Positions 1 through 17,242 of a DNA stretch of 64,000 nucleotides are shown in pieces. Within the stretch, counting starts at the first letter, position 1, and every line of letters starts with the position of its first letter. The stretch comes from an uncultured Chloroflexia bacterium (GTDB taxonomy: Bacteria > Chloroflexota > Ktedonobacteria > Ktedonobacterales > Ktedonobacteraceae). The notes under the pieces were generated by a model. That model was not told the DNA's origin. It saw only the letters and a program-made list of their open reading frames with translations, and ran no database searches. Location of the stretch: the NCBI GenBank assembly GCA_963791835.1, contig CAWBTV010000007.1, forward strand, positions 941,807-1,005,806. Reading direction: 5' to 3'. Position numbers and translations under genes: made by a program.

Positions 1-133
1 CAGAGATTAGGCCATAGCGTTGACCTCTTTGCAATGTACGTTGAATGCACAAAATACTCATAGGGCCAACAGCCGCCGCGATAGAGAGGCCAATGAAGAG
101 ACCTCGCAAAAAGAAACTTCCATCCATCAATAC
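1..133 (-). CDS. LysE/RhtB-family amino-acid exporter, N-terminal fragment (gene runs off the window start)
   Basis: Reverse-strand ATG at 131-133 preceded by AAAGGAG. The translation MDGSFFLRGLFIGLSIAAAVGPMSILCIQRTLQRG resembles a LysE/ArgO N-terminus. It is absent from the ORF track because it is truncated by the window edge. Confidence 0.5.
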
Positions 134-162
134 GCTCCTTTTTGAACTGCAATAAAACACAA

Positions 163-205
163 AAAAGTCGCCAGACCTAATGTTTAAGGTCTGGCGACTC
201 GTTGC
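163..205 (-). terminator. Hairpin (11-bp stem) followed on the minus strand by TTTTTTGTGTTTTATT; lies in the leader of the LysE-like gene
   Basis: GTCGCCAGACC...GGTCTGGCGAC inverted repeat followed by a T-tract, read on the minus strand. Confidence 0.5.
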
Positions 206-282
206 GTCTGCTTTTATGTAATCAGAGACATGCAAAGGAAACCATACCTGTGATAGGCTGGCTTTGCTGTTGACTTTCGCCT

Positions 283-311
283 GTTATAAGAAAATGGTAG
301 TGCATATGCAA
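283..311 (-). promoter_or_regulatory. Putative sigma70 promoter for the LysE-like gene (-35 TTGCAT, 17-bp spacer, -10 TATAAC on the minus strand)
   Basis: The reverse complement of 283-311 reads TTGCAT-N17-TATAAC, about 150 nt upstream of the LysE start. Confidence 0.45.
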
Positions 312-394
312 TCTCTTTGCTTTTCTGATAGAACATTATCATACCAGATTTTCAATGAAAAGGGAACGTTATGGAAAATTGCCTCTCAAAAGGC

Positions 395-425
395 TTGAGC
401 ATGACGTAACGTCATCCTTTATACT
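395..425 (+). promoter_or_regulatory. MerR-type promoter: -35 TTGAGC (395-400), 19-bp spacer containing perfect palindrome ATGACGT-A-ACGTCAT (401-415), -10 TATACT (420-425)
   Basis: The 19-bp spacer with a centred inverted repeat is the hallmark of MerR-family-controlled promoters. It is followed by AAAGGAGG and a GTG start at 448. Confidence 0.6.
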
Positions 426-447
426 CTTTACAGAAAGGAGGAACACC

Positions 448-1257
448 GTGGATCGCCGATTTTATCATACCAGCGAGTTCGCACAGAAAGCGTCTGTCTC
501 GGTACGCACGTTGCGCTACTACGACAAAGTGGGGTTGTTGTCGCCCTCGACCTATACAGAGAGTGGTTATCGGCTCTATACAGATACCGACCTGCTACGG
601 TTGCAACAAATCCTGGCCTTGAAATTTCTTGGTTTCTCGCTACAAGAGATTCAGCAATTTTTAGCGGCTGAACCACTGCTCCTACAAGAGTCGTTGGCGC
701 AACAGAAGGCCATGATGCAAGAGCGCAGAAGCCAGCTGGATACGGTTATCCAGGCTATAAGCGAGACAGAAGAGTTGTTACAGGCCAACAAACTTAACTG
801 GGAGTCTATTATACGGGTGATCCAGGTGATTCAAATGACACAAAATAACGAATGGCAAGACAAGTACTTCACGCCAGAACAACGCCAGCAGATGGAAGAC
901 TTGAGCAAGAAACATTATTCCGAAGAGCAACGACAACAGATAGCCGAGTGGGGTAAGAATTGGAGTGAGGAGGACCAACGCATTGTAAGCCAGAAATGGG
1001 ATGTCCTCTTTGCGGAGCTAAAGCGTCTCGTCTCAACTGGGCAGAACCCGGATGGGCCAGAGGCACAGGCACTCGTGTCACAATGGAAGGCTCTTGTAGG
1101 CGAGTTCACACACGGCGACTCAGGTATTCAACAAGGCTTGAACGGCATGTGGCAGGATGTTGGCAACACACCTGCCGAACAAAGGCCCTTCGCTATGCCA
1201 TATACACCGGAGGAGGGAGAATTTCTGCTCAAAGCGATGAAGATGCAGAACATCTAA
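448..1257 (+). CDS. MerR-family transcriptional regulator (N-terminal HTH, long C-terminal effector domain; possibly TipAS-like)
   Basis: HTH motif YHTSEFAQKASVSVRTLRYYDKVGLL. GTG at 448 with RBS AAAGGAGG. The ORF-track ORF 355..1257 is trimmed to the RBS-supported start. Confidence 0.75.
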   Translation: MDRRFYHTSEFAQKASVSVRTLRYYDKVGLLSPSTYTESGYRLYTDTDLLRLQQILALKFLGFSLQEIQQFLAAEPLLLQESLAQQKAMMQERRSQLDTVIQAISETEELLQANKLNWESIIRVIQVIQMTQNNEWQDKYFTPEQRQQMEDLSKKHYSEEQRQQIAEWGKNWSEEDQRIVSQKWDVLFAELKRLVSTGQNPDGPEAQALVSQWKALVGEFTHGDSGIQQGLNGMWQDVGNTPAEQRPFAMPYTPEEGEFLLKAMKMQNI

Positions 1258-1317
1258 AAAAGTGTCTACAGGAAATGCGTTGCATTTCCTGTAGACACTT
1301 TTTTAGATGTTCTGCAT
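1243..1317. repeat. 75-bp perfect palindrome (36-bp arms, 3-nt centre) spanning the stop codons and last 4 codons of two convergent genes; bidirectional terminator-like
   Basis: Left arm 1243-1278 is the exact reverse complement of right arm 1282-1317. The arms include ATGCAGAACATCTAA (MQNI*) of both flanking ORFs, with an A-tract and T-tract inside. Confidence 0.85.
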
Positions 1318-2992
1318 TACCAATTCTGCCACAATTTTGCCTGACAACATCACCAATGGCACACCACCACCGGGATGGGTGCTTCCTCCTACAAAGTAGA
1401 GATTACATATTTCGGATGTGTTGCCAGGGCGTGTGAAGGGTGCCATACGTGAGTTCGAGGAGAGGCCGTAGATTGAACCTGCATTCGCACCATATTTATC
1501 ATAGAAGTCCTGGGGGGTGAGCATAGTCTCACAGACAATATGCTCTCGCAGGTCGCTCAGGTCTACTTGTTTATAACTTGCGAGCAGGTCGAGAATACGC
1601 TCACGATATGCGGGTGCTTCGCGTTGCCAATCGCTTTTTGATGTGAGATAGGGCGCGTTGACCAGCACAAACAGGTTTTCGTGTCCTGGGGGTGCCTGTG
1701 TCGGGTCGCTACGCGTGGTAGCACAGACATAGATCGTTGGATTGTTCAAGGGTACATGGCGTTCAAACAGGTCGTCAAACTCGGCGTGATAGTCGTCGGA
1801 GAAAAAGATGTTGTGATGCGACAATTGCGGATACTGCTTATCGAGACCGAGCAGCAAGACAAAGCCAGAGCAGGACGGCTCTAGCTGTTCCAGGCGTTGC
1901 ACACGTCTTCTGTTGCGTATCGCTGGCGATAGCAGTTCGCGATGCGTTGTCACGACATCGCTATTGGCGATCACGATATCACTCCGTAGCACACGCCCGT
2001 CTGCCAGCACAACACCACGAGCAGTATTTCGCTCCACAAGAATACGCTGTACATTACAGCATGTCTCAATCGTGACATCCAATTCACGCGCAACTCGTTC
2101 TAATGCCTGTGCTACCGCATAGATACCACCACGCGGATACCAACCACCATCGGCAAGCTCAACATAGGGAATGATGCGATAGACTGAGGCAACTTGATAT
2201 GGTGAAGACCCGTTATAGGTTGCGTAACGATCAAACAACTGACGTAAGTGCTCATCCTCAAAAAAGTTGTGTACACTCTCATCTAAGGTCTGTGGTGAAA
2301 GGGCGGCAAGGACAGCTTTTAGACGCGAAAGGAGGGTGGAGGGGGGTATATTATTCGTAGGGACCAGATTTATCGCGTCCGTAGGCGATTTATCGCGCGA
2401 GATGCCTTCATGTTCATGTCGTTCTTTGTGTGATCTATAGGCGATAAATCGCCTACGGACGCGATAAATCTGGTCCCTACGACCATCTGGATGTCCTCGT
2501 AACACATAACGTACAAACGTCCTCAAAACATTCGAGCGGACTACCTAAGCTATGATAGAGAAACGGGTCTGCCGCAGCTTGAAAGATGTTATAAGCCGAA
2601 TCAAAGAAGTGCAAGAAGGTGGTGCCATCATGTAGATTGAGTTGTGCAAACTCCTGGGCTAGTCGCTCGTGGTCACGCCATGCATTGAGTATCAGGCCGT
2701 CATGATAAAAGTAACGGCATGTGATGTCGAGCGGAATCAGATCAAGATAGTCTTTGAGATTGCGTTGAGCCGATTGGAAGAGGTCTTCGAGGACGTAAGG
2801 CATGGTGATAAGTGATGGACCTGTATCGAAGCTAAAGCCGTCTATCTGGATAGAATTAAGTTTTCCGCCAACCTGTGCCTGTCGCTCTAAGATGGTGACA
2901 TGATGACCCTGTGCTGCTAAGCGAATGGCTGCTGAGAGACCACCAATACCCGCTCCTATGACGATAATGCTCTTATGTTTGGATGTAGACAC
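1303..2992 (-). pseudogene. CrtI/CrtD-family FAD-dependent carotenoid desaturase split into two ORFs by a 124-bp MITE (2357-2480)
   Basis: N-terminal fragment (2481-2992) has the Rossmann motif IIVIGAGIGGLSAAIRLA. The C-terminal fragment (1303-2356) has CrtI-like GGWYPRGG and a C-terminal GGSTHPGGG. The fragments are in different frames. Deleting exactly 2357-2480 restores one 521-aa ORF. Confidence 0.7.
2357..2480. mobile_element. MITE-like palindromic element, family A (GTAGGGACCnnTTTATCGCGTCC terminal inverted repeats), nested inner repeat
   Basis: Terminal inverted repeats gtagggaccagatttatcgcgtcc / ggacgcgataaatctggtccctac. The same termini recur at least 9 more times in the window. Confidence 0.75.
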
Positions 2993-3065
2993 GCTTGTTT
3001 ATACCTCGTTTGTTTTCGTTATTATAGTGATGTTATTATAGGTGATAAATGGGTAGGGGGTTTAT

Positions 3066-3818
3066 ATGATACCTGCACACAAATTTCCGCTCGGCGAATA
3101 TCTCGTCGAGGGCTTGATAGATGGCTCGTTCCGCAAATATTTTGACCGCATCCATTATCGGCAATATGGGACATATACGGATGAGCAACGGGCGTTACCG
3201 ATGATTATCTGTGCCAATCATTCGACATGGTGGGATGGCTATGTGGCGTTACTGGTGGCGCGTCAACTTGGTGTTGATCCGTATTTGATGATGGAAGAAG
3301 CACAGTTGCGCCGCTATTTCTTTTTTCGCTGGATTGGCTGCTTTTCGGTAGACCGACAGAATGCACGCTCAGCTATGCAGTCTCTGCAATACGCAGCCCG
3401 TATGCTTAAAGAGAAACAAGGACGTATGGTTTGGCTCTTTCCGCAGGGCGAGATTTCACCAAATGATCGTCGTCCGTTTGAATTTTTTACGGGTGCGGCA
3501 CATCTCGCACGCCTGACCACGACGAGTCTTGTTTATCCGCTTGCGATACGCATCGAATATCTCGCCGAACAACGACCTGATCTTTTTATTAGCCTCGGCG
3601 AACCCTTATGCGTTGATGCAGAGATGGCGCATACTCCTGGTTTCCTCAAACATTGTACGCATCAGCTAGAGGGTATGGTGACAGCCGAACTCGACCAGTT
3701 ACGTAGTGACATTGTAGCAGGGGATTACTCGTCCTTCACGTTGTTGATGCGTGGCACATCTTCGACAAACAGGATATTCGACTCGCTCTTACTGCGGAAA
3801 CAGATTGGCAGGCAGTAG
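3066..3818 (+). CDS. Lysophospholipid/PlsC-family acyltransferase (CruD-like carotenoid-glycoside acyltransferase candidate)
   Basis: HX4D acyltransferase motif NHSTWWD. Strong RBS GGGTAGGGGG upstream. Context with the CrtD-like and GT2 genes. Confidence 0.7.
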   Translation: MIPAHKFPLGEYLVEGLIDGSFRKYFDRIHYRQYGTYTDEQRALPMIICANHSTWWDGYVALLVARQLGVDPYLMMEEAQLRRYFFFRWIGCFSVDRQNARSAMQSLQYAARMLKEKQGRMVWLFPQGEISPNDRRPFEFFTGAAHLARLTTTSLVYPLAIRIEYLAEQRPDLFISLGEPLCVDAEMAHTPGFLKHCTHQLEGMVTAELDQLRSDIVAGDYSSFTLLMRGTSSTNRIFDSLLLRKQIGRQ

Positions 3819-3820
3819 AG

Positions 3821-5143
3821 ATGATGAGATTGTTCATAGAAAATGCCTGTAGGGGTCTAATTCATCACACCCTGTTGGCAATGAACCATGCCGGAGAATA
3901 TGGAAAACGTTTAATCAATATCTCACAAGTTTGTTTATCGCCAATAGGGTGTAATGAATTAGACCCCTACAGATACGTTGCCGCACTCGTACTTTGTATT
4001 CTTATCATCCTATTCGCTATCCTCATCATCAACCTGTTCACGTTTTATCGTCTACGACCTCATATTGAGACACAAAACACAGAACAGCCGCTTGTCTCTG
4101 TCCTGGTGCCAGCACGGGATGAAGCGCAATCTATCGAGCGATGTGTGCGTTCGTTGGTAGCCCAAACATATGAGCGATTAGAGATACTTGTATTGGACGA
4201 TCATAGTAGTGATGCGACGGCAACAATTGTGCAGAGCATCATGGATGAATTGCCTGTACAGCAACAAGGAAGGGTACGACTGTTGCAAGGCGAGGAGTTG
4301 CCGTTGGGATGGGGTGGCAAAAACTTTGCATGTCATCAACTGGCACAACACGCGACAGGGAACTATTTGTTTTTTACGGATGCTGATACTGTTCACGACC
4401 CTAAGATGATTGCATCCGTAGTTGATTGTATGCAAATCCGTAAGGTTGCATTGCTCACAGCACAACCAACCTATGAACTTGATAGTATAGGAGAACGTCT
4501 TGTCGTACCGCTCCTCACCTTTACCATTATGACGCTGCTTCCTGTGGCCCTTATTCCTGTGCGACCGGAGCCAAGTCTTGCTACGGGTAATGGACAACTG
4601 TTGTGTTTTGAACGTTCCGCATACGAACATATTGGTGGACATTCGTCGGTGAAGAATCGCATTTTGGAAGATGTGTTACTGGCACGTGCGGTCAAGGCGG
4701 CAGGCTTGCGTATGATTTTTGTGGATGCACAAGACCTTGTGCGTTGTCGCATGTATCGCTCGTTCGCGGAGGTCTGGTCGGGCTTCTCGAAAAACCTGTT
4801 CGCGTTTTATAACTATGCGTTACCCTTCGCGCTTATCGGACTTGTGCTAAATATCCTACTTTTTATTGTGCCAGCATTGCTCATTTTATCAGCCCTATTT
4901 ATACCATTCTCGTTTCCGACATTGCTTTTGGCGACAGGTGCCTATGCGCTTCCTGTCGTGATGCGCATGTTATTAACGCTGCGCTTTACACAGACGCAAC
5001 GAGGGTTGATGCTTTTGCTGTGTCTGCTGCATCCCGTTTCGATTGCGCTTGAATGCCTGATTTTGCTCAATTCGATACGCTGGCATTATCGTAAAGAGGG
5101 AACGGTGTGGAAGGGTCGGCAATATGTGACTTATCAGAAATGA
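3821..5143 (+). CDS. Family-2 glycosyltransferase with C-terminal multi-TM domain (CruC-like); true start uncertain because a MITE occupies the 5' end
   Basis: GT2 motifs VLVPARDE...LVLDDHSSD...FTDADT. Residues about 9-50 of the ORF are encoded by MITE D1, which contains an in-frame ATG at 3881. Confidence 0.7.
   Translation: MMRLFIENACRGLIHHTLLAMNHAGEYGKRLINISQVCLSPIGCNELDPYRYVAALVLCILIILFAILIINLFTFYRLRPHIETQNTEQPLVSVLVPARDEAQSIERCVRSLVAQTYERLEILVLDDHSSDATATIVQSIMDELPVQQQGRVRLLQGEELPLGWGGKNFACHQLAQHATGNYLFFTDADTVHDPKMIASVVDCMQIRKVALLTAQPTYELDSIGERLVVPLLTFTIMTLLPVALIPVRPEPSLATGNGQLLCFERSAYEHIGGHSSVKNRILEDVLLARAVKAAGLRMIFVDAQDLVRCRMYRSFAEVWSGFSKNLFAFYNYALPFALIGLVLNILLFIVPALLILSALFIPFSFPTLLLATGAYALPVVMRMLLTLRFTQTQRGLMLLLCLLHPVSIALECLILLNSIRWHYRKEGTVWKGRQYVTYQK
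3848..3969. mobile_element. MITE-like element, family D (GTAGGGGTCTAATTC terminal inverted repeats)
   Basis: gtaggggtctaattcat...atgaattagacccctac. Related copies at 15983-16130 and a remnant at 10963-10997. Confidence 0.7.
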
Positions 5144-5155
5144 ACACACGCTGAC

Positions 5156-5578
5156 CTAATTCTTCGTTCCATGAAGATGTTGTATCTCCTCTCGAATCTG
5201 GAAGTTCGCAAGCCGTGATTCTTGAAGCATAAAGTAAGCTCCTGCGAGTATCATACACATTCCGAGAATCGTTAGACTCACTGGAAGCCAGGTAAGCATA
5301 TCAGCAAAGTAGCGGTCTACTGCGATAGAGAGACAATCTAGTACCAAGATACCTACCGCGAGAAAGAAAGCGGTCACTGCTCGCTCTGCCAGCAGTGACC
5401 GCGAGGCATACCGATCAAGCCAACGTTTCGACATATCTTGCGTCCAGCCAAGCTTTCTCGTTTCCTCGTCAGACAATTGCAACATTGCTCTGGCACGATC
5501 AATAGCTCGTGCCAGTCGTTGAAGTGCCGTCGCCACAAGGGATGCAGAACCCAGAATCAAAAGAGCAGGTGTAATCAT
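5156..5578 (-). CDS. Small membrane protein (DUF2721-like), start uncertain
   Basis: ORF 5156..5803 trimmed to the internal Met (MITPALLILGSA) downstream of the preceding same-strand gene. Three predicted TM segments. Confidence 0.45.
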   Translation of the reverse strand: MITPALLILGSASLVATALQRLARAIDRARAMLQLSDEETRKLGWTQDMSKRWLDRYASRSLLAERAVTAFFLAVGILVLDCLSIAVDRYFADMLTWLPVSLTILGMCMILAGAYFMLQESRLANFQIREEIQHLHGTKN

Positions 5579-5624
5579 CGCGGATATGATGATGAGAGCA
5601 GGGGAATTTGTGTTATTCAACACC

Positions 5625-6206
5625 TCATTCTCCGCTAACCATATCAAAGAGAATTCCGATGGCCTTTTGTGCTGTTGGTTGCGAGAAATCGCCAGCCAAC
5701 TCTCCCGAAAGCGTTGCAATGGAGACGGTAGATGCTCCCACTTGCACAATACGACGAAGCGCAGCATCTTCCGTACGCCCACTAATTCCCGCGACTGCGT
5801 CAATCACAATAAACACACGATAGCCTAAATCGGAACCTGAAAGTGCAGGCAGTTGTACGGCAACTTCAGTTGCAGCCCCGGCAATCAAAATGGTTTTCCT
5901 CCCCGTCGCCTCAACAGCCTGTTTGATAGCCTGATTCTCGAATGAGTCGGCAGTGGTGCGATAGTAAATCGGCAGTTCTCCCAACCCCTGCGCGATTTCC
6001 GGCATAATCTGTGCCGGACTTCCGTCTTGCCCCTTGACTGCTGAAACAATCGCAGGCATTCCAAACAAATGTGCGAGCCGTGAAAGCGCAAGAACGCCCT
6101 TCTGTAACCTTGCATAGGGAACAGTGAGTGGCAGGTCGGCGATGCCTGCTTGCAAATCTGCGAACAGAACGAGTGTATCATTAACTTCTATTTTTGACTG
6201 CTTCAT
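5625..6206 (-). CDS. Isochorismatase-family cysteine hydrolase
   Basis: Isochorismatase-like fold signature (VLFADLQAG...ILIAGAATEVAVQ). ATG at 6206 preceded by AGGAGGAG. Confidence 0.7.
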   Translation of the reverse strand: MKQSKIEVNDTLVLFADLQAGIADLPLTVPYARLQKGVLALSRLAHLFGMPAIVSAVKGQDGSPAQIMPEIAQGLGELPIYYRTTADSFENQAIKQAVEATGRKTILIAGAATEVAVQLPALSGSDLGYRVFIVIDAVAGISGRTEDAALRRIVQVGASTVSIATLSGELAGDFSQPTAQKAIGILFDMVSGE

Positions 6207-6372
6207 ATTAATACTCCTCCTAGAATTAGAGATAAATCGTGGTCTACCTGTCATATCACCATCGCTCATCAAGCGATTGGTAAGAGCGATACTGCTGTAG
6301 ACATTCGTCATCGCGCACTTACATGATTATAGAATGAGGAAGACAAAGGCATCTTGGAAAAAGATGCTCTTT

Positions 6373-7248
6373 TTATGAGGAAATTGGTAAATTCTTGCTA
6401 TTCTGGCGCAGAAGCGTTTGAGGCGTTACACCAACTACGCGCTTGAAATAACGAGTAAAGTGGCTCTGATCAAAAAAGCCGACCTGCAGTGCAACTTCTG
6501 CAACGGACAATTTCCCTTGTAGCAACAAGCTCTTCGCGCGTTCAATTCGTGTATGCAGTATGTATTGATGAGGTGCCATACCAGTTGCTTGCTTAAAGGT
6601 GCGCGCAAAGTGGTAAGAACTCAGATTGGCAATAAAAGAGAGTTCCGCGAGGGTTAACTGATGGGCAAGGTTATCGTGAATGTACTCAATGACACGCTGT
6701 ATCACAATTCTTGAAGGATGACCTATTGCATCATCAATATTATGCTTCTGAACAGCATAACGACGTAGTACATGTGCCGATAATGCCGTTGCAAGTGCTT
6801 CGGCGTAAAGAGCAGAAGAGGCGACCATACCTGCATCAAGTTCTGCCTTGAGTGCCAACGCTATATGCTGTAATGAGGGATCTCGAAATTCCTTTTTACT
6901 TTCCATAATCTCGATAGGGTCGTAGCTTCCAAGGCTTTCTCCAGTCTGAGCTACAAGTGAGGGGTCGAGAAAGAGAAGTAAAAATTCTGTCTCATCCTGC
7001 CAACGTATCCAATGACGTGAAGATGCAGGATAGATCATCGCCTCGCCTTGTCCAGCATAACTGCTATACAAAGGACCACCATTTACACGCTTCTCAGTAT
7101 GAGACTCGTTGAGAAAAATACAAAAGGTATACTGTGGCGAGTAAAGTTCGCACTCCGCTGGCGGTTGACGATGATGCTCAATACTGATACCATTCCAGGT
7201 AGCACTTTGGGGCAATACAAGTGGTAACTGTTCATTCAGAGCCTGCAT
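6373..7248 (-). CDS. AraC-family transcriptional regulator
   Basis: C-terminal AraC HTH (SYHFARTFKQATGMAPHQY...FFDQSHFTRYFKRVVGVTP). Start set at the Met with upstream AGGA. Confidence 0.7.
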   Translation of the reverse strand: MQALNEQLPLVLPQSATWNGISIEHHRQPPAECELYSPQYTFCIFLNESHTEKRVNGGPLYSSYAGQGEAMIYPASSRHWIRWQDETEFLLLFLDPSLVAQTGESLGSYDPIEIMESKKEFRDPSLQHIALALKAELDAGMVASSALYAEALATALSAHVLRRYAVQKHNIDDAIGHPSRIVIQRVIEYIHDNLAHQLTLAELSFIANLSSYHFARTFKQATGMAPHQYILHTRIERAKSLLLQGKLSVAEVALQVGFFDQSHFTRYFKRVVGVTPQTLLRQNSKNLPISS

Positions 7249-7369
7249 ATTCCTGTATCCATTCTTTTCGTTGTGCTTCTGCACTGCCTTGCTATTTGCA
7301 GCAACTTCATCCTTGAACATCTCCGCAGGCTCCTTAGTGAATATAGCCACAAGGATGACGCAATCAACC

Positions 7370-7780
7370 TTACTTGGTATTCCGTTCTACGCTCGTACAC
7401 CACAAGGCCCATGAGATAAACACGGCTTGAAAGGGCAAGCGTCCCCACATGTAAATCGGTGAGTTCATGAAGCCACCTAGCTTGATATTTGCGACAGCTT
7501 GATAGACGTTGGCAGGAAAAATTCCGACAAGAAGCGCGACCAGGCCCCATGCCGATGCGCGTTGTACTTTGCGGTTGGGGATGAATAGGCCAACACCACC
7601 GAGAAATTCAAGGACACCTGTAATATAGAGTGCCTCACGCCGAAAAGGTAAGAACGGTGGAATGATTTTCAATTCCGCTTCACGCGCCGTAAAGTGCATG
7701 GTAGAGGCAAGAATAAAGAGAATACCCATTGTGAACCGTGCAAGTGTTTTCCATAGACGGGGTGAAGAGAGGTTACGCAT
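7370..7780 (-). CDS. DoxX-family membrane protein
   Basis: Four TM helices and DoxX-like sequence pattern. Confidence 0.6.
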   Translation of the reverse strand: MRNLSSPRLWKTLARFTMGILFILASTMHFTAREAELKIIPPFLPFRREALYITGVLEFLGGVGLFIPNRKVQRASAWGLVALLVGIFPANVYQAVANIKLGGFMNSPIYMWGRLPFQAVFISWALWCTSVERNTK

Positions 7781-8645
7781 ACAATTTTTTCCTTTTTATA
7801 AAAGATAATCCCACTAGAACCAGTCCAGCAAGTATACCAAGCAGTGCGGCCCAATAATAGCCGTGCGTGATATCGACCAGCCCAAACATAAAGAGGCTTG
7901 CGCCAAAGAGAATACGTGGCGTTAATAAAACAAGTCTATAAAATGGCAGGGAGACCGCAAGGGTCTCCCCTGCATTTTCGCGATACCCTCCATATAGGGG
8001 AGACCCTTGCGGTCTCCCTGTTTCCCGAAGTACTCTATCGACGAGTAAGAGTAGTATGAAGGCGACGACGAACCATGCCGCGAAATTTGCTAATGGCACA
8101 GCATAATAGTTGATAGGTCCGGGGGCAAGCCACTCCCAGTAGTGTTCCAGGTGGGCGGCGACAGGCTCAATTTCTAAGTCCAAGAGTGTCGCGAGTGCAG
8201 CACCCAATAATGCACCAGATACGCCAAGAGGCCGCTTTTCCGCACGTATCCAACCATAAGCCCCGAACACAATCAGTACCCACGCGAACATGACAGCCAT
8301 TGGGACTCCAACCGGCAGGCTGGGAAAAAGTACATCGGTATAACGATAAAGGCCAAAGGGAAAGCCTGTTCCTACCCCTATGGCCTCAACGATGTAAGAG
8401 AGAGTGATAACAAGCAAGCCTGCACATACACCACGCAGCCAACCATACTGTAAGCTTGCCGCCACAATGAGTAACATGCCTTCGAGGAAAAGCAGCGCAC
8501 TTCCAGCCCATGCCAGCGAAAAGGGCGGATGCACATCAAAGGCAACACCAGTTACAGCTATCGGATACGCAATACAAAATATGCCGAAAAGCACGAGAAA
8601 GATGCGTGGCCCCCATTTGAAGGTTGAATGTTGCTCAAATGTCAT
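7773..8645 (-). CDS. Polytopic membrane protein, possibly carotenoid 1,2-hydratase CruF-like (DUF422); contains an in-frame MITE (family E) insertion
   Basis: Seven or more TM segments. Sits in the locus with CrtD-, CruC- and CruD-like genes. Residues RETGRPQGSPLYGGYRENAGETLAVSLPF are encoded by repeat 7946-8019. Confidence 0.5.
   Translation of the reverse strand: MTFEQHSTFKWGPRIFLVLFGIFCIAYPIAVTGVAFDVHPPFSLAWAGSALLFLEGMLLIVAASLQYGWLRGVCAGLLVITLSYIVEAIGVGTGFPFGLYRYTDVLFPSLPVGVPMAVMFAWVLIVFGAYGWIRAEKRPLGVSGALLGAALATLLDLEIEPVAAHLEHYWEWLAPGPINYYAVPLANFAAWFVVAFILLLLVDRVLRETGRPQGSPLYGGYRENAGETLAVSLPFYRLVLLTPRILFGASLFMFGLVDITHGYYWAALLGILAGLVLVGLSFIKRKKLYA
7946..8019. mobile_element. MITE-like element, family E (two inverted copies of GGGAGACCGCAAGGGTCTCCC hairpin flanking a 24-nt spacer), translated in frame
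   Basis: Left 7946-7971 and right 7996-8019 are reverse complements. A single-hairpin relative lies at 52685-52749. Confidence 0.7.
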
Positions 8646-10033
8646 ACATTGCCACCCTGCACGGCTGCAATTCCTCGTGCATAGGCTGCTGTTTTTGTAA
8701 TGAGTGCAACTGCACCGTTGCTTGTGTCCAGAGCATAGAGCATACCATCAGAGTAGAATGTCGCAGTAGAGTTGCTAATCCAGGCTCCTAATTCAACAAA
8801 AAGGTCCGTCGAGTTTGCAAGCAATTGTGGCTTTCCCACAATTGGCTGTCCAGCAGAACTCCCGGTATGCACCATGTATACGGCATTGTGACGGTCAAAA
8901 GGAGTTTGGGCATCGCTCGAAAACACAATGTATAAGAGCGAGTGACTATCGGGTGCAAATGTCGGCGTTGTCACCCAATGATAGGCTGCGTTGTTACTAA
9001 GATCGTGCTGTTCGGGCAAAATCATGGATGTGTTTTGCAGTACAGGGTGATTAGCATCCGAAGAAACACCGATATGTGCAAGAGAAAGACTGTTTGCATA
9101 GTTGAGTGCCGAGATATCGCGTGGCACGCTTGAGTCATCGGTCGCAGGAACAACATCTTGCTTGGTCGAGTATAAAAGCGTCGTGCTATCAGGAGAAAGT
9201 GCCAATGGCCCCTGTGATGCATCGTCCGCAAGCAGTTCGAGTGGGTCTTCGAGAGGGGTAGTGGTGAGGCTCAGGCTCCACAAGCCATAATGTACAGCTT
9301 GATGGTCGCCTCGATCATCGGTAAGTAACAACGTCGAGTTTGGCTGTACCCCTTTGCCTTGCCAGAACGCAAAGACACGATAGCAGGGACAATCTGCTGC
9401 ATTATGTTGGTAAATTGGTGCGGATTTTTCTAACGGACCAACATAGAGCGTATTGTTACCAATCCCGTTCGCGGGTTCAGTACTCCATGCAACCGTTGTG
9501 CCATCGTTACTCAATATCATTGAAGTAATCACCTGCCCTGCTGGTAGCGTTGCAATTTGTTTCGGCATACCATTAAATATATCGGTGAGCCAGAGACCAT
9601 TGCCACTATAGAGAAGTTGACCCGAAGGCGTAATAAGTGGTGGGGCTGAGAGATTATAGATATAGCCAGGAGTTGTCAACACTGTCGCAAGTCCACCTGC
9701 AAGCGGAACAATAGAGATATTTTTAGGTTGCTGGTATACAACATATTTGTCCGTGGGAAGTGTAAGTTGTGGTGCTGCTGCCTGTCCAGGTGGGAGTAAA
9801 GGTCCAACATCTTTATCTGAATTGACAGTTGGCGTTGGACGAGGCACGGTACTCGTTCTGCGTGCTACCACCTGGGACAAGTTCCAGAATAACTGACCTG
9901 TAAAAAGCAAGAAAAGCATTCCAACAAGCACAAGTAACACAAATATTGCCTTTTTAGAAACAGGGCTTGAATGTGGTGATAATGGGAATGAAGCCTGTTC
10001 TGATGGAGGAGGGTTTTGTACTTGTTGTGTCAC
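8642..10033 (-). CDS. Membrane-anchored protein with TolB/PD40-like beta-propeller repeats
   Basis: N-terminal TM (IFVLLVLVGMLFLLF) followed by repeats such as LYSGNGLWLTD and TTLLYST. 4-nt overlap with the upstream gene. Confidence 0.5.
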   Translation of the reverse strand: MTQQVQNPPPSEQASFPLSPHSSPVSKKAIFVLLVLVGMLFLLFTGQLFWNLSQVVARRTSTVPRPTPTVNSDKDVGPLLPPGQAAAPQLTLPTDKYVVYQQPKNISIVPLAGGLATVLTTPGYIYNLSAPPLITPSGQLLYSGNGLWLTDIFNGMPKQIATLPAGQVITSMILSNDGTTVAWSTEPANGIGNNTLYVGPLEKSAPIYQHNAADCPCYRVFAFWQGKGVQPNSTLLLTDDRGDHQAVHYGLWSLSLTTTPLEDPLELLADDASQGPLALSPDSTTLLYSTKQDVVPATDDSSVPRDISALNYANSLSLAHIGVSSDANHPVLQNTSMILPEQHDLSNNAAYHWVTTPTFAPDSHSLLYIVFSSDAQTPFDRHNAVYMVHTGSSAGQPIVGKPQLLANSTDLFVELGAWISNSTATFYSDGMLYALDTSNGAVALITKTAAYARGIAAVQGGNV

Positions 10034-10058
10034 ACTACGTTCACTTTCTTCGCTTGGT

Positions 10059-10862
10059 TTATGCGGTCTGGTCGCCTTGAGCAGCCTGTTCTAGCTTCTG
10101 GACATGATGTTGCACAAAGGCAATCGTTTTGGCAAAGACCTCTTCGCGGTCATGGTCTTTCATGATGACATGATACGAACGATGGAATGTTACCAGATGT
10201 TTCTCTTGCGAACCGAGGAGACGGTAAATCGCGCGTCCATCTCGTGCAGGCACCACATGGTCACGCACCGAGGCCATGACGAGGGCAGGTGCGGTAATCT
10301 GTCTCAACTCGTTACGCAACCGAGGCAAGAAGCGAAGCATACTTTCAACGGGAGCCATCGGGGTCCAGCGATAGACATCGCGCGTATAACGACGCCGTGC
10401 CTCCGGGTCGCGTACATCTTCGCGCAATGTTGGTAACAAGGGAGTTACACGTTTCGCGAGTTGAATCATGGGCATCATCCATGGATGCATCGTGATGGGA
10501 GCACACATGGTCACAATACCGGCCACCTCTTCGTGTGCTGCGGCATGGAGACACAGGGCACCACCGAGGGAATGTCCGATCAGAAAGACAACATCACAGC
10601 GTTGCTTGAGTGCATGCAATTCTTCGCGTACCGCCTCAGCCCATTCAGGCCAACCAAGTGGCAACATATCCCGTACATGGCTTCCATGACCGGGTAGCAA
10701 GATATTTTCTGTCACCATCCCCTGTGCATAAAAAAGATCATTGAGTTCTTCCATATCATGCTTGCTTCCATTCAGCCCATGCACAAGCATAACACCAACT
10801 TTTAGCTTTGTGTTGGATGTCGTCTGTTGCTCCGTCTGTTGTAGTGGGGATGTGTTACCCAT
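10059..10862 (-). CDS. Alpha/beta-hydrolase (carboxylesterase/monoacylglycerol-lipase-like)
   Basis: Nucleophile elbow GHSLGG, with the HG oxyanion motif VMLVHGLNGS. Confidence 0.75.
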   Translation of the reverse strand: MGNTSPLQQTEQQTTSNTKLKVGVMLVHGLNGSKHDMEELNDLFYAQGMVTENILLPGHGSHVRDMLPLGWPEWAEAVREELHALKQRCDVVFLIGHSLGGALCLHAAAHEEVAGIVTMCAPITMHPWMMPMIQLAKRVTPLLPTLREDVRDPEARRRYTRDVYRWTPMAPVESMLRFLPRLRNELRQITAPALVMASVRDHVVPARDGRAIYRLLGSQEKHLVTFHRSYHVIMKDHDREEVFAKTIAFVQHHVQKLEQAAQGDQTA

Positions 10863-10962
10863 TTTCGTGTTCCCTTGTGTTTACATATCCGCCGCTATTC
10901 TATCTTATAGCATACCATATTGGATGCGTGAAATGCCCACTAGCCGCATACGATAATTAACG

Positions 10963-10997
10963 AATTGTAGGGGTCTAATTCATTAACCCCTACAATT
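10963..10997. repeat. Family D MITE remnant (solo terminal repeat gaattgtaggggtctaattcattaacccctacaattc)
   Basis: Shares the GTAGGGGTCTAATTCAT terminus with D1 and D3. Confidence 0.55.
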
Positions 10998-11112
10998 CAC
11001 GATCCATTCGTTACAGGAATAATTCCGCGTACATTTTTGGTTACATTAGTATGAACATCAGTCCTTATTTGTTGTACTTTTTCAGACAGAATGCTATATT
11101 TTTCCCATCCTA

Positions 11113-11182
11113 TAGGGACCGAGTTATCGCGTCCTTATAACACATGCAAGAACAGACAAGGACGCGATAAATCGGTCCCTAC
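11113..11182. mobile_element. MITE-like element, family A
   Basis: tagggaccgagttatcgcgtcc...ggacgcgataaatcggtccctac. Confidence 0.7.
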
Positions 11183-11213
11183 ATTTGACGCGCTCATTCT
11201 ATTAGGAGTTATT

Positions 11214-12350
11214 ATGAAATTTTCGACGAAAGCCATTCACGCGGGGCAAGAGCCAGACCCATCAACGGGCGCGATTATGACCCCCATTTATCAGACATCA
11301 ACCTATGCTCAGACGGGGATGGGAGAACATAAAGGGTTCGAGTACGCCCGTACAGGGAATCCAACACGGAGCGCATTGGAAGCATGTATCGCGGCCCTAG
11401 AGAACGGCACACATGGTCTTGCATTCGCAAGTGGTATGGCAGCCGAGAGCGCGGTTTTGAGCTTGTTGAGTGCTGGCGATCATATGATTTCCTGCGACGA
11501 CCTGTATGGTGGCTCATATCGTATCTTTGAACGCATCATGCGGCGTTATAATGTCGAAACGAGTTATGTTACGGCAGGCAACGTTGCGGAGTACGAGAAG
11601 GCTATTCGTCCCAACACCAAACTTATCTGGTTAGAGACTCCTACCAACCCACTACTGCGGCTTGTGGATATTCGTGCGGTGGCAGAGATAGCTCATCGCC
11701 ACAATCTGCTGCTCGTCGTAGACAACACCTTTTCAAGCCCCTACTTTCAGCAGCCCCTTGAACTAGGTGCGGACATCGTGTTGCACAGTACCACAAAATA
11801 TATCAATGGACATAGCGATGTCGTTGGTGGTGCTGTAGTTACCAGCAATGAAGAAGTCTATGAGGCTCTCAAGTTTCATCAAAATGCGGCTGGCGCGGTT
11901 CCTGGTCCTTTCGATGTGTGGCTCACCATGCGCGGTATCAAAACACTTGCGGTACGGATGCGTCAGCATGAAGAAAACGCGTATTCTGTCGCACGCTTCC
12001 TGATGGAACATAAGCGTGTAGAAAAAGTATATTATCCAGGCTTGCCATCGCATCCCGATCATGAGTTAGCCAAACAGCAGATGAGTGGCTTCGGAGGTAT
12101 GGTCTCCTTTCAAATCAAAGGAACGCTTGCCGATGTAGAGCAAGTGGTACGCCGTTTCAAGGTCTTCACCTTTGCCGAGAGTCTTGGCGGTGTAGAGTCG
12201 CTGGTATGTCATCCCGCGACCATGACGCATGGTTCCATTCCAAAAGATATTCGTGAAGCTCGTGGACTTGGTGACACCCTGCTACGCCTGTCTGTCGGTA
12301 TCGAGGATATCGAGGACATTTTGGGCGACCTTGAGCAAGCTTTAGCGTAA
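11214..12350 (+). CDS. Cys/Met-metabolism PLP-dependent enzyme (cystathionine gamma-synthase/beta-lyase family)
   Basis: MKFSTKAIHAGQEPDP...STTKYINGHSDVVGG (PLP lysine motif). The long ORF 11091..12350 is trimmed because its first 40 codons are encoded by MITE A2. Confidence 0.85.
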   Translation: MKFSTKAIHAGQEPDPSTGAIMTPIYQTSTYAQTGMGEHKGFEYARTGNPTRSALEACIAALENGTHGLAFASGMAAESAVLSLLSAGDHMISCDDLYGGSYRIFERIMRRYNVETSYVTAGNVAEYEKAIRPNTKLIWLETPTNPLLRLVDIRAVAEIAHRHNLLLVVDNTFSSPYFQQPLELGADIVLHSTTKYINGHSDVVGGAVVTSNEEVYEALKFHQNAAGAVPGPFDVWLTMRGIKTLAVRMRQHEENAYSVARFLMEHKRVEKVYYPGLPSHPDHELAKQQMSGFGGMVSFQIKGTLADVEQVVRRFKVFTFAESLGGVESLVCHPATMTHGSIPKDIREARGLGDTLLRLSVGIEDIEDILGDLEQALA

Positions 12351-12361
12351 GCAAATCCCTG

Positions 12362-12420
12362 TGCCAAAAAGCTATTGACTCAGCGTACATGTTGTACGCT
12401 GAGTCAATAGCTTTTTGGCA
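12362..12420. terminator. 59-bp perfect palindrome (28-bp arms) downstream of the PLP-enzyme gene
   Basis: tgccaaaaagctattgactcagcgtaca-tgt-tgtacgctgagtcaatagctttttggca. Confidence 0.7.
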
Positions 12421-12550
12421 TACTTCGTTACTTTTTGCTGATCAAACCGATGTATAATACAAAGGAACTATAATCTTTTCTTTCTACTATACTTTTCTAT
12501 TTCTAACTATCTTATTGACCCGTCTATATTCACGAGAGGCTCTTTCTCTA

Positions 12551-14260
12551 ATGATACAGCCCATCTTTCTTTCTACAAAGGGCATACGTCGATTGGTGCC
12601 AACCGCACTCACGATACTACTCTTGGGACTCGTCTTAAGTGCATGTGGTGGCAATGCTCAACTCCAACAACAAGCGACCACAAATAAAGCGTCACTTGAT
12701 ACGGCACTGACGCACGCAAAAGACATTGGTATACCGGACACGATGTTGCAACCCATTGTGCGTCAGGAGATGCAACTGAGTACGACCAATGCACCTGTCA
12801 CCTTGTTTAGCGATCAACCTGCGACGGACTATTATTCCAATCTTTCGCAGCGTTACCATATGCTCGCCATTCAAGTAAATGGCTTGATGACGCAGGCCAC
12901 CCAGCAATTTGATTATCAATCAACACTTGATTTGCAAGCATTCGAGAGTGTACTGGCAAAGCGTCAGGGGCAAGGATTTGTCGAGGCGAAGACATTTGCC
13001 GACCAATTGACCCAGGACCAGAAGTTACAGGCAAAAGCGCAGTATCCCAAAGATTACCTTGCCATTAGCGCAAGCGCGAAAAGTTCAGCACAGGCATTAC
13101 GACTGATGGGACCTGCCTTTGACAAACTCACGACACTGCAAAATACGATCAAGCAATTGCAATCCTCGCATCTCGATGTAACGGCGTTGAACCAGGAATA
13201 TCAGCTTGACGTTCAGCAGTTTCGCACGGCAACGAATTCAGATGGTTTTACACAAATTATTGACCAGTTGAATGCTCAGCTTCAAGAAACAACGACATTC
13301 TCAACGCAAGCCATTCCTTACGTTGGGGCCGCAAAGCTCAAACAACTCGGTAATAGTATTGACCAGATGAAGCAATATGGGCAAGATGTCAGCAGCTTCC
13401 AGAAAATGCTTACGACCGACCAAACAGCATTGAGTACCGCAAAGTCTCTCAGCGATTACCTGAAAGTGTCGGCGCAAATTGACACTGATGTTGCCTCTAT
13501 TCAAACACCGCTTATTAAAGGGCAAGCGAACTATCTCTTGACACAATTCCACCAAGAGGTTACAACGTGGGGCAATGCTCACCTGTATCATAATGCATTT
13601 GATAATAAAAACTACACTCAGGATTATGAATACGATCAGGCTGAGGGTTTCGGCTCCGATGCAGATGTAGCCGTGCAGTCAGCACAAACACCTGACGATT
13701 ATCAAGCCGCGATTGACCTGATTAACAATGACATGATGCATCTCAAAGCGATGGAAGCGGACTTAGCGGATACCACTCCCTGGAGTAAATCACATGCTAC
13801 TGATGTGCAATTGATGCAGCATTATGGCGTTATGACAGGTCCAACGGTTGTCATCTCGCTCATTGAGCAGACACTACGCTTTTATCAGGATGGTCAACTT
13901 GTCAAGGCTTATCAAATCACCTCCGGGCAATTCGATAAGCCATCACCTCCAGGCTTCTGGCATATCTTTGACCGCGAGTCACCTACGAAGTTCAAATCAA
14001 GCGAGCCAAAGGGATCGGCGTTCTGGTATCCAGACACAAAGATCAACTTTGCGATGGAATATCACGATGGCGGCTACTTTCTGCACGATAGCTGGTGGCG
14101 TGTGAACTACGGTGTGGGCACCAATTATCCACACTACGATACAGGTGGTGATGAGTCGTTTGCAGGAACTGGCAGTCACGGCTGTATCAATATGCAAGAA
14201 GATCAGATAGCATGGCTCTATGCCCATACGGGTTACGGCATGGCTGTTGTTATCTACTAA
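12551..14260 (+). CDS. L,D-transpeptidase (YkuD-domain) lipoprotein with long N-terminal domain
   Basis: Lipobox LVLSAC. C-terminal YkuD catalytic motif GTGSHGCINM. Confidence 0.75.
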   Translation: MIQPIFLSTKGIRRLVPTALTILLLGLVLSACGGNAQLQQQATTNKASLDTALTHAKDIGIPDTMLQPIVRQEMQLSTTNAPVTLFSDQPATDYYSNLSQRYHMLAIQVNGLMTQATQQFDYQSTLDLQAFESVLAKRQGQGFVEAKTFADQLTQDQKLQAKAQYPKDYLAISASAKSSAQALRLMGPAFDKLTTLQNTIKQLQSSHLDVTALNQEYQLDVQQFRTATNSDGFTQIIDQLNAQLQETTTFSTQAIPYVGAAKLKQLGNSIDQMKQYGQDVSSFQKMLTTDQTALSTAKSLSDYLKVSAQIDTDVASIQTPLIKGQANYLLTQFHQEVTTWGNAHLYHNAFDNKNYTQDYEYDQAEGFGSDADVAVQSAQTPDDYQAAIDLINNDMMHLKAMEADLADTTPWSKSHATDVQLMQHYGVMTGPTVVISLIEQTLRFYQDGQLVKAYQITSGQFDKPSPPGFWHIFDRESPTKFKSSEPKGSAFWYPDTKINFAMEYHDGGYFLHDSWWRVNYGVGTNYPHYDTGGDESFAGTGSHGCINMQEDQIAWLYAHTGYGMAVVIY

Positions 14261-14267
14261 TTTCCTA

Positions 14268-14321
14268 GAAAACATGGTATTGGTTGGTGCGTGAAGCACG
14301 TCAACCAATACCATGTTTTCT
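14268..14321. terminator. Palindromic terminator (20-bp outer stem plus inner gtgc-gtgaa-gcac hairpin)
   Basis: agaaaacatggtattggttg...caaccaataccatgttttct, directly after the ldt stop. Confidence 0.65.
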
Positions 14322-14332
14322 GTCCTATTGAT

Positions 14333-14362
14333 TTGACATATGAAGCGCATTTCTGCTATAAT
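14333..14362 (+). promoter_or_regulatory. Consensus sigma70 promoter for rpsT (-35 TTGACA, 18-bp spacer, -10 TATAAT) with about 90-nt structured leader
   Basis: TTGACA at 14333-14338 and TATAAT at 14357-14362. The leader contains hairpins ccgacggttcgtcgg and gcccggaacacgggc. Confidence 0.6.
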
Positions 14363-14450
14363 CGTTTGGCACTCAAGACCGACGGTTCGTCGGCATTTTT
14401 ATACAGAAAAGCCCGGAACACGGGCCGATTTCGGGGAGGATTTCTACCAC

Positions 14451-14717
14451 ATGCCCAATAATGCAGCCGCTGAAAAGCGCATGCGCCAGGAACAAACACG
14501 CCGCGCACATAATCGCAGCGTCAAAACGATTGTAAAAACGCAGATCACAAAGGCACGCACCGCCATCACAGCAAAAACAGTCAGTGCGGAAGATGCCGAG
14601 ACGGTAGTACGTGCGGCTGTTAGCGAACTTGATCGCGCCGCCAAAAAAGGTGTTATTCACAAAAACAATGCTGCTCGCCGCAAGTCGCGCTTGATGAAGC
14701 AGCTTAACGCAAAATAG
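14451..14717 (+). CDS. rpsT: 30S ribosomal protein S20
   Basis: MPNNAAAEKRMRQEQTRRAHNRSVKT. RBS GGGGAGGA. The ORF-track ORF is trimmed to this Met. Confidence 0.9.
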   Translation: MPNNAAAEKRMRQEQTRRAHNRSVKTIVKTQITKARTAITAKTVSAEDAETVVRAAVSELDRAAKKGVIHKNNAARRKSRLMKQLNAK

Positions 14718-16578: not shown

Positions 16579-17196
16579 ATGGCAGAGCGGATAAATGAAG
16601 AGACACGACCAAAACGAGAACTTATTCTCGCGGCGGCACGCGACCTTTTTGTGAACAGAGGATACGAGGAGACAACGATTGCCGATATAGCTCGGGCGGC
16701 TGGGGTCGCGGTTGGGACGGTTTATCTCTACTTTCGTAACAAGCACGAGGTCTATACAGGAGTTGCGCTTGATGTAAAGGCGATGATTGCAGGTGCATTT
16801 CAAGCACCCTCAATGCTTAACCTACCATTTGAGCAGATACCAGCAGCAATGATTGCAGCTTCGTTTCGTGTATGTCGCGAGCACAAAAATCTGGTCTCAC
16901 TCTTACAAATAGATATGCAATCTTCAGAAGAAATACTTCTGCATAAGCAATCAGAAGAGCGTGTCACGGAAGCCATTGACACTGTATTACGCATTGGTAT
17001 TGCTCAAGGGCATCTCGCTCCATTTAATACACAGATGTATGCTAGAATGCTTAATTTGTCTGCAAGTAGTGTTTTTCATCAATGCTACGCAGTTGAAAGA
17101 GGTGAGCGAGAGGACGTGTATCAAGAGTATCTAACAGAATTTGTTGAACGTCTCTTTTTTGGACCATCACTTCAAGAGGGCAAAAAAGAGTTGTAA
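16579..17196 (+). CDS. TetR/AcrR-family transcriptional regulator
   Basis: N-terminal HTH (AAARDLFVNRGYEETTIADIARAAGVAVGTVYLYFRNKHEV). Confidence 0.85.
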   Translation: MAERINEETRPKRELILAAARDLFVNRGYEETTIADIARAAGVAVGTVYLYFRNKHEVYTGVALDVKAMIAGAFQAPSMLNLPFEQIPAAMIAASFRVCREHKNLVSLLQIDMQSSEEILLHKQSEERVTEAIDTVLRIGIAQGHLAPFNTQMYARMLNLSASSVFHQCYAVERGEREDVYQEYLTEFVERLFFGPSLQEGKKEL

Positions 17197-17242
17197 TATG
17201 TCTAACCTAAGACATATTACAAACGTATACAGTGTAGTCTTT

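Follow-up and report, generated by a model that had tools for sequence, protein, structure and literature searches.

A probable psi-end carotenoid tailoring module of the CruF/CrtD/CruC/CruD type, carrying in-frame palindromic elements, in a Ktedonobacteria genome

The 64-kb stretch of DNA analysed here (the window) is part of the genome of a soil bacterium in the class Ktedonobacteria (phylum Chloroflexota), and the closest homologues of every tested protein were found in Ktedonobacteraceae genomes or metagenome-assembled genomes (MAGs). A preliminary description had proposed that four genes lying within 7.4 kb of this window form a set for carotenoid 1'-glycoside ester tailoring. By open reading frame (ORF) listing and by Pfam and NCBIfam searches, the four genes were found at positions 1303-8645, where they encode a CrtI-family desaturase, a PlsC-superfamily acyltransferase, a membrane-associated family 2 glycosyltransferase (GT2) and a PF04240 membrane protein. 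They are present in this interval but are not contiguous, as DUF2721, isochorismatase-like, AraC and DoxX genes occupy the 2.6 kb between the GT2 gene and the PF04240 gene (5156-7780). Taken together, the four genes probably constitute a tailoring module for the psi-end of a carotenoid, of the CruF/CrtD/CruC/CruD type. The module and the features within it are listed below.

1303..2526, minus strand: crtD-like gene, C-terminal fragment, ORF of 407 residues (TIGR02734, 305 bits)
2355..2482, unstranded: palindrome within crtD, 128 nt, with 42-nt arms that are 100% complementary
2477..2992, minus strand: crtD-like gene, N-terminal fragment, 171 residues (PF13450, 59.8 bits; Rossmann GxGxxG motif for flavin or nicotinamide adenine dinucleotide, FAD/NAD)
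2531..2533, minus strand: site of one extra base in crtD (CTCGAATG), from DNA alignments and three-frame translation
2993..3065, unstranded: divergent intergenic region between crtD and the acyltransferase gene, 73 bp, presumed shared promoter region
3066..3818, plus strand: cruD-like acyltransferase gene, 250 residues (PF01553)
3821..5143, plus strand: cruC-like GT2 gene (PF00535, 80 bits; PF13506, 48 bits)
3847..3972, unstranded: palindromic element at the 5' end of the GT2 gene, 126 nt, with 40-nt arms that are 90% complementary
7773..8645, minus strand: cruF-like gene for a PF04240 membrane protein, 290 residues (PF04240, 100 bits), a predicted carotenoid 1',2'-hydratase
7947..8020, unstranded: palindrome within cruF, 74 nt, with 25-nt arms that are 100% complementary

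The preliminary description had left it to a profile search whether the membrane protein belongs to PF04240. When this search was run, the protein scored 100.2 bits against a cut-off of 25, over profile positions 5-163. The match is limited to these positions because an in-frame palindrome splits the domain; relatives that are free of the insert match positions 3-206 at 135 bits. All 159 homologues retrieved with the protein belong to PF04240, and its seven hydrophobic 19-residue segments (Kyte-Doolittle) are those of a polytopic membrane protein. By analogy with characterised relatives, a 1',2'-hydratase activity on the psi-end is predicted.

For the second protein, a GT2 domain, acidic motifs and membrane segments were all found. 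The acidic motifs D126-D127, D187-A-D189 and E283-D284 are invariant in 17 orthologues. Hydrophobic segments were located in the C-terminal third (residues 338-416), where a membrane domain had been proposed, as well as at residues 52-70. In NCBI MAG records, the name hydroxychlorobactene glucosyltransferase CruC is given to orthologues at 80-81% identity, and many others, at 61-78% identity, carry the JGI name chlorobactene glucosyltransferase. No curated CruC model appeared among the NCBIfam matches of the GT2, and its assignment to CruC is taken from these transferred names.

The acyltransferase had been the weakest link of the first reading. The protein ACYLTRANSFERASE, encoded at 3066-3818 (+), matched PF01553 at 57.3 bits, contains the expected HX4D motif as H52-x4-D57 and has no predicted membrane helix. 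A HMMER scan of 1.84 billion cluster representatives returned 1892 relatives, of which the best 150 were inspected. In the 138 nearest representatives, H52 and D57 are conserved at 100%, and N51-H52-x2-W55-W56-D57 and F125-P126-Q127-G128 are kept in 89-100%; the NHxxWWD and FPQG forms of these motifs are specific to the clade. On the PlsC model TIGR00530, the protein reached only 41.1 bits against a cut-off of 102.95. This low score showed that it lies outside PlsC proper (1-acylglycerol-3-phosphate acyltransferase), as the preliminary description required. Among the best 150 relatives, P0186 (33% identity, from an Alteribacillus species, under the name carotenoid biosynthesis protein) joins PF04240 to PF01553 in one fused protein, P0179 (36% identity) likewise joins a GT2 (GT21-type) to PF01553, and P0130 (41% identity) carries the JGI name chlorobactene lauroyltransferase. 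Because of these two fusions, the name of P0130 and the low TIGR00530 score, the acyltransferase was grouped with CruD and not with PlsC proper. The fusions tie it to the other two functions, and its gene is also a neighbour of CruF across Chloroflexota.

The conservation of the gene group was followed in 49 loci (L numbers) from species-representative genomes, which were retrieved by alignment of the PF04240 protein and its homologues and in which the window proteins were placed by tblastn. The closest locus of this collection is 87% identical to the window over a partial match, and none is identical. The CruF, GT2, acyltransferase and CrtD genes occur together in about 30 Ktedonobacteria loci. 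There, the usual order is cystathionine-lyase-like (-), hydrolase, PD40-like, CruF-like (+), GT2 (-), acyltransferase (-) and CrtD-like (+). With the same genes next to each other in about 30 independent loci, chance falls far short of explaining the grouping. Dictyobacter alpinus (L018) has the four genes back to back (CruF 10001-10792, GT2 10882-11970, acyltransferase 12097-12846 and CrtD 12916-14466), an arrangement that was also observed in D. vulcani, D. aurantiacus, D. kobayashii and Tengunoibacter. Outside the class, in the Chloroflexales/Herpetosiphonaceae loci L046, L047 and L050, a PF04240 gene is found near a homologous acyltransferase gene.

In Ktedonobacter racemifer, K. robiniae, strain SOSP1-85, L028 and L042, the CruF and CrtD genes are adjacent and the GT2 and acyltransferase genes are missing from the stretch examined. 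The latter two were lost as a pair in the Ktedonobacter loci L038, L039 and L044 and in L028 and L042. Such a paired loss is what a modular pathway of two plus two genes predicts. In L026, L043 and L049, the acyltransferase gene is kept and no GT2 gene was detectable in the stretch examined.

The desaturase was assigned to its family through TIGR02734 (crtI_fam), on which the C-terminal fragment scored 305 bits (cut-off 238), the N-terminal fragment, with its Rossmann motif, 137.9 bits over model positions 1-150, and an intact orthologue 445 bits. The best equivalog models of the C-terminal fragment are those of CrtD, NF042421 (263 bits) and NF045637 (261 bits), both below their cut-offs. The CrtD models are still the top equivalogs for the intact orthologues, above those of CrtID, isomerase and CrtO. 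When the orthologue P0393 was compared with the PDB, the best solved structure was the 1'-hydroxy-carotenoid 3,4-desaturase CrtD 4REP, deposited under the name gamma-carotene desaturase (328 bits, E 1e-96), matched over both its FAD-binding and its substrate domains, whereas the phytoene desaturase CrtI 4DGK scored 253.5 bits; the desaturase is thus closer to the solved CrtD than to CrtI. It differs from 4REP CrtD in its missed equivalog cut-offs, in the frameshift of the window copy and in a longer loop that bears a palindrome.

The family assignment of the CrtD/CrtI desaturase therefore stood, but the gene could not be read as a single ORF. In the window, it consists of two ORFs in different frames (171 and 407 residues), separated by a +1 shift. 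The extra base was placed at about 2531-2533, where the window reads CTCGAATG and relatives read CTTG-ATG or CTGA-ATG. Beyond this point, the N-terminal frame enters a premature TAG inside the palindrome; the +1 frame goes on as VLRTFVRYVL..., which is nearly invariant in 51 orthologues. The first 60 or so codons of the C-terminal ORF take in the translated palindromic element. In relatives, the gene is a single intact ORF of 564 (L001), 565 (L053), 567 (L051) or 578 (L052) residues. Programmed +1 frameshifting was considered and rejected on two grounds: the nearly invariant TFxRYVL is kept only if the shift falls precisely on CTC-GAA, a site not known to be slippery, and no shift is needed in relatives. 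Inactivation of crtD by the palindrome itself was ruled out, as the element is in frame and the ORF reads through it in four related lineages.

The frameshift raised the question of whether the module is decaying, or truncated, in the window genome. In that case, crtD would be a real and very recent pseudogene, and the pathway would end at a 1'-hydroxy glycoside ester lacking the 3',4' desaturation, or would be inactive. The lesion is present in the deposited assembly, whose annotation gives two separate crtD proteins of 171 and 400 residues on one contig, and the extra base lies outside any long homopolymer. All the other genes checked in the window (about 50) gave full-length domain matches, so that the assembly is not generally ridden with insertions or deletions. 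Decay would also agree with the inserted genes that interrupt the module and with the palindromic element that displaces the start of cruC. However, a single lesion was detected in 1.7 kb. Outside the insert, the crtD DNA is 84% identical to that of L001, and the protein identity of the two fragments with the intact orthologue there is 86-91%, a pattern of purifying selection acting until very recently. A single-base error of long-read assembly would have the same appearance; in the long-contig MAGs L002, L024, L025, L029 and L033, several conserved genes (lyase-like, GT2, crtD) are split, and assembly indels would give such a pattern. On balance, we consider decay a serious contender, with a chance somewhat below even. 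It concerns the window genome alone and does not conflict with the function assigned to the module. Should the frameshift be genuine, either the 3',4' double bond would be missing from the product or another enzyme would carry out this step.

The psi-end tailoring module is in line with systems described in other Chloroflexota. In Thermomicrobium roseum, which makes acylated carotenoid glycosides, a CruF-acyltransferase fusion (trd_1162) lies beside cruC (trd_1161) (PMC2615216). For Herpetosiphon aurantiacus, cruF, cruC and cruD were reported from the genome, and gamma-carotene glycosides and their fatty-acyl esters are made by a related strain, H. giganteus Hp a2 (PMC3368417). With the systems of T. 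roseum (trd_1161-1162), H. aurantiacus and Roseiflexus, the window module shares its phylum and the families of its PF04240 hydratase, GT2 and PF01553 acyltransferase. The genes are likewise linked, physically or by fusion, and the expected products are carotenoid glycoside fatty-acid esters. The Ktedonobacteria CruF and acyltransferase are, however, only about 35-40% identical to their Chloroflexales/Herpetosiphonaceae counterparts. In addition, the window hydratase and acyltransferase are separate genes with neither crtB nor crtI nearby, and CrtD belongs to the Ktedonobacteria block, as do a conserved hydrolase and a PD40-like protein on its upstream side. The same pairing of a GT2 with an acyltransferase acting on a 1'-hydroxy carotenoid is that of CruC and CruD in Chlorobaculum tepidum (Maresca and Bryant 2006, as cited in PMC3368417). 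Public pipelines passed these names automatically to the orthologues; unlike in C. tepidum, an aromatic carotenoid substrate is unlikely in the window organism.

By analogy with these characterised relatives, which are the source of each single reaction, of the reaction order and of the sugar, acyl chain and backbone, the following pathway can be proposed. First, the PF04240 membrane protein would hydrate the 1',2' double bond of the acyclic carotenoid end, giving a 1'-hydroxyl. Second, the CrtD-like flavoenzyme of the CrtI family would introduce the 3',4' double bond. Third, the membrane GT2 would place a sugar on the 1'-hydroxyl and, finally, the soluble acyltransferase would add a fatty acid to this sugar as an ester. 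Other parts of the genome would hold the early genes (crtB, crtI, cyclase). In Rhodothermus marinus, deletion of the fused cruF-crtB gene, with crtB function restored by a foreign crtB, abolished the glycosyl-acyl modifications (PMC7414004), a result that fits the proposed order, with hydration before glycosylation and acylation. Cultured Ktedonobacteria are orange to pinkish-orange (PMC12453558; PMC3236041), and carotenoid-linked terpene clusters are widespread on their chromosomes (PMC13289182).

Several observations weigh against this reading. None of the four proteins reaches the curated equivalog cut-off of a characterised enzyme. For the PF04240 protein, the scores on the CruF models were 34.8 bits (cut-off 400) for NF045693, the gamma-carotene 1'-hydroxylase model, and 74.3 (154.7) and 42 (300) for TIGR03460 and NF041333, both models of bisanhydrobacterioruberin hydratase; judged by these profile scores, the protein is a member of the family and not an equivalog of any characterised subgroup. 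The intact desaturase orthologues P0393 and P0487 remained below the CrtD cut-offs (376-378 bits against 580 for NF045637 and 358-365 against 500 for NF042421), and the window copy itself is frameshifted. On the CruG model, the GT2 scored 148 bits against a cut-off of 600. Four unrelated genes split the module in the window lineage, and Pfam revealed no phytoene synthase (crtB), second CrtI-family gene, cyclase or ketolase in the whole window. Furthermore, no published pigment chemistry or carotenoid structures were found for Ktedonobacteria. The proposed 1'-glycoside ester tailoring set thus held for the protein families and the logic of the pathway, but not at the level of equivalogs.

A further difficulty is that UniRef names some orthologues after enzymes of the C30 staphyloxanthin pathway, CrtP and CrtQ. 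The Dictyobacter desaturase orthologues are called 4,4'-diaponeurosporene oxygenase and a Ktedonosporobacter GT2 is called 4,4'-diaponeurosporenoate glycosyltransferase. With the backbone-forming genes outside the window, the backbone may be C40 or C30 and acyclic or monocyclic, and a diapocarotenoid pathway of the staphyloxanthin type can be envisaged, in which the CrtI-family protein would act as an oxidase like CrtP and the GT2, like CrtQ, would esterify a carotenoid carboxyl. However, the tightly linked PF04240 hydratase is needed for a 1'-OH glycoside and not for a carboxyl glycosyl ester, and the curated models and the solved structure nearest to the desaturase are those of CrtD. Moreover, CrtO, which acylates staphyloxanthin, is a small membrane protein that is not known to be related to PF01553. 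Such a C30 pathway is consequently quite improbable.

The best NCBIfam match of the GT2 is HpnB, a hopanoid-associated (hopene-associated) glycosyltransferase, at 201 bits, and NCBI calls the acyltransferase orthologues only lysophospholipid acyltransferase family protein. The two enzymes could then act on another membrane lipid, such as a hopanoid or a glycolipid, and their adjacency to carotenoid genes would be incidental. We regard this as highly improbable: the HpnB match is well under its cut-off of 379; across genera, the pair has stayed between CruF and CrtD, and in several lineages it was lost as a whole while those two remained; and fusion to PF04240 or to a GT2 of this kind is seen among the acyltransferase homologues. 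The assignment of all four genes to psi-end carotenoid tailoring was therefore retained.

Three of the four genes had been described as touched by MITEs (transposable elements of the miniature inverted-repeat type), and palindromes were indeed located in crtD, at the 5' end of the GT2 gene and in cruF. The crtD element (2355-2482), a perfect palindrome that has GTAGGGACC...GGTCCCTAC at its ends, occupies a variable loop without breaking the frame; stop codons are lacking from one of its six frames only, namely that of crtD. The same element is found in frame at the same site in L001, L053, L051 and L052, where the flanking coding DNA is only 78-84% identical, which indicates that the insertion is old and that the protein carrying it was kept. 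The loop, from about residue 165 to about residue 225, has 16-23 residues in basal Ktedonobacteria and up to 90 in orthologues that took up palindromic elements. It has received at least half a dozen unrelated sequences, and at the DNA level different hairpin elements were seen in L002, L005, L011 and L042. In the AlphaFold model of P0393 (predicted template modelling score, pTM, 0.81), residues 172-216 lie between two helices with a per-residue confidence (pLDDT) below 50, and the remainder of the enzyme folds confidently.

The cruF palindrome (7947-8020) is also in frame and falls in the loop between hydrophobic segments 5 and 6. By protein alignment, this loop is hypervariable and holds different inserts in relatives. 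The third element (3847-3972) sits between the stop codon of the acyltransferase gene and the conserved body of the GT2, where it replaces the native N-terminus and the region of the start codon. Element-free orthologues start about where it ends, and close relatives have other elements there. Since no start codon follows the element, translation of the GT2 must begin at ATG 3821/3824, reading through it, or at ATG 3890, inside it. The palindromic elements are thus tolerated insertions, in frame in loops or at the N-terminus, and not gene disruptions. At these loops, related species have other elements and an unbroken reading frame.

These elements are multi-copy: the GTAG-ended core GTAGGGRC...CC has 11 matches in the 64 kb, against 0.03 expected, and several palindrome families are present in the window. 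No transposase domain was detected by Pfam among the scanned ORFs of at least 180 residues, no search aimed at an associated transposase having been made. Rickettsia and Coxiella are known to have palindromic elements in frame (PMC5896051), and no published description of them was found for Ktedonobacteria. As short multi-copy palindromes with GTAG-type ends, the window elements resemble the Rickettsia palindromic elements (RPEs) and Coxiella MITEs (PMC5896051) and the GTAG-tagged repetitive extragenic palindromes (REPs) (PMC3733652). With the first two, they also share insertion in coding sequence in a way that keeps the frame and adds a peptide loop (PMC5896051).

The arms of the crtD element showed a particular pattern. 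Near-identity among five lineages extends over the outer 24 nt of each arm, against flanks that are 78-84% identical. The left arms of the window and L001 differ by two neighbouring substitutions (TA to AG), and the right arms by their mirror image, so that both palindromes are 100% self-complementary; the L053 element has unpaired changes. This pattern suggests hairpin-templated homogenisation, selection on the stem, or re-insertion. In this clade, the CrtD and CruF loops and the CruC start are recurrent landing sites of GTAG-ended elements that are translated with the enzymes. In view of the almost unchanged outer arms and the mirrored substitutions, it may be speculated that these sites do more than tolerate junk, and that the hairpin within the coding sequence is maintained by templated repair or selection. 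This proposal is tentative and is considered unlikely. If it were true, the maintained hairpin could act on pigment-gene expression at the level of DNA or mRNA.

Similar palindromes were observed elsewhere in the window. A GTAG-type palindrome at 11113-11181 lies just upstream of the cystathionine-lyase-like gene, and the mechanically defined ORF 11091-12350 reads through it, gaining about 40 residues that are not homologous to the proteins of relatives. At 25228-25330, a perfect palindrome with 41-nt arms separates the queuine tRNA-ribosyltransferase gene from a lipoate-ligase-like gene; ORF 25207-26166 runs through it, and its Pfam match begins only at residue 62. A second family (CGGTAGGGGCAGCAATTCATTGCGCCC...) occupies at least three sites (18781-18909, 46895-46955 and 60252-60388). 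A third (CATGACAGGGGCAAGCCC...) was found at 29242-29288 and 50159-50205, and an element of this type also lies in frame within the L005 crtD loop.

The genes and features that surround or interrupt the module are given below.

355..1257, plus strand: MerR/TipAS-family regulator gene (Pfam), convergent with crtD, a possible regulator
1243..1317, unstranded: hairpin, 75 nt, with 36-nt arms that are 100% complementary and a 3-nt loop, over the convergent MerR and crtD stops
5803->5156, minus strand: DUF2721 gene (Pfam)
6311->5625, minus strand: isochorismatase-like hydrolase gene (Pfam)
7350->6373, minus strand: AraC regulator gene (Pfam)
7370..7780, minus strand: gene for a DoxX-family small membrane protein (PF13564, 26.5 bits), its start overlapping the cruF stop by 8 nt
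10033->8642, minus strand: gene for a membrane-anchored PD40-like protein (Pfam), its stop overlapping the cruF start (ATGA 8642-8645)
10862->10059, minus strand: alpha/beta hydrolase gene (Pfam)

Among the 49 loci, AraC, isochorismatase-like and DUF2721 genes were found between CruF and GT2 in the nearest relatives only (all three in L005, a remnant in L001), and not in Dictyobacter, Tengunoibacter or most other loci. The DoxX gene is limited to the subclade nearest the window (L001-L005, L009-L011 and L016). As they are confined to the nearest relatives, these four genes represent a lineage-specific insertion into an older four-gene block. On the other side of cruF, the hydrolase, PD40-like and CruF genes form a conserved and translationally coupled arrangement. 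The order hydrolase, PD40-like, CruF is present in nearly all Ktedonobacteria loci (L001-L045), and the first two genes are absent from the Chloroflexales/Herpetosiphonaceae loci.

The MerR/TipAS gene adjoins crtD in L001, L002, L003, L011, L051 and L053 and lies about 2.3 kb beyond it in L005; a MerR gene is also present in the carotenoid cluster of R. marinus (PMC7414004). In the window, the MerR and crtD genes end within the 1243-1317 hairpin, with stops at 1257 and 1303, respectively, and each arm encodes the same C-terminus, MQNI. This hairpin may serve as a terminator in both directions, or both stop codons may have come from it as one more inserted palindrome. The same architecture was seen at 12362-12420, right after the cystathionine-lyase-like gene, in the form of a perfect hairpin with 28-nt arms and a 3-nt loop. 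No RNA family was detected by Rfam within positions 1-14000. The best promoter-like match of the scan, TTATCA-16-TATAAT on the minus strand (3048->3021), falls in the intergenic region 2993-3065, and the total number of matches was not above that of shuffled sequences (18 versus 15.8).

Further away, a TetR regulator gene and a cytochrome P450 gene lie at 16579-18642, 8 kb off the module, and the same pair is found near the module in L001. The P450 with its TetR neighbour is the only conceivable extra tailoring gene, and was set aside because nothing connects the pair to the module or to carotenoids. The gene at 33593-35626 encodes a fusion of a Ser/Thr kinase with a WD40 propeller, the repeats of which account for the direct-repeat families D3 and D4.

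The interpretation of the locus is supported but not new, and the gain is modest, since the module is a textbook one and the orthologues are already annotated automatically in public records. What is added is a corrected anatomy (the frameshift, the split block and the in-frame palindromes), a prediction across genera and the view of the loops as recurrent, tolerated landing sites. For annotation, palindromes lying in frame or over a start codon lengthen ORFs and split domain matches without inactivating the genes. For the organisms, the CruF/CrtD/CruC/CruD module is extended to the non-phototrophic, actinomycete-like Ktedonobacteria. It is predicted that genera with all four genes, such as Dictyobacter, make acylated carotenoid glycosides, and that Ktedonobacter species, with CruF and CrtD only at the locus, would stop at hydroxylated, desaturated carotenoids.

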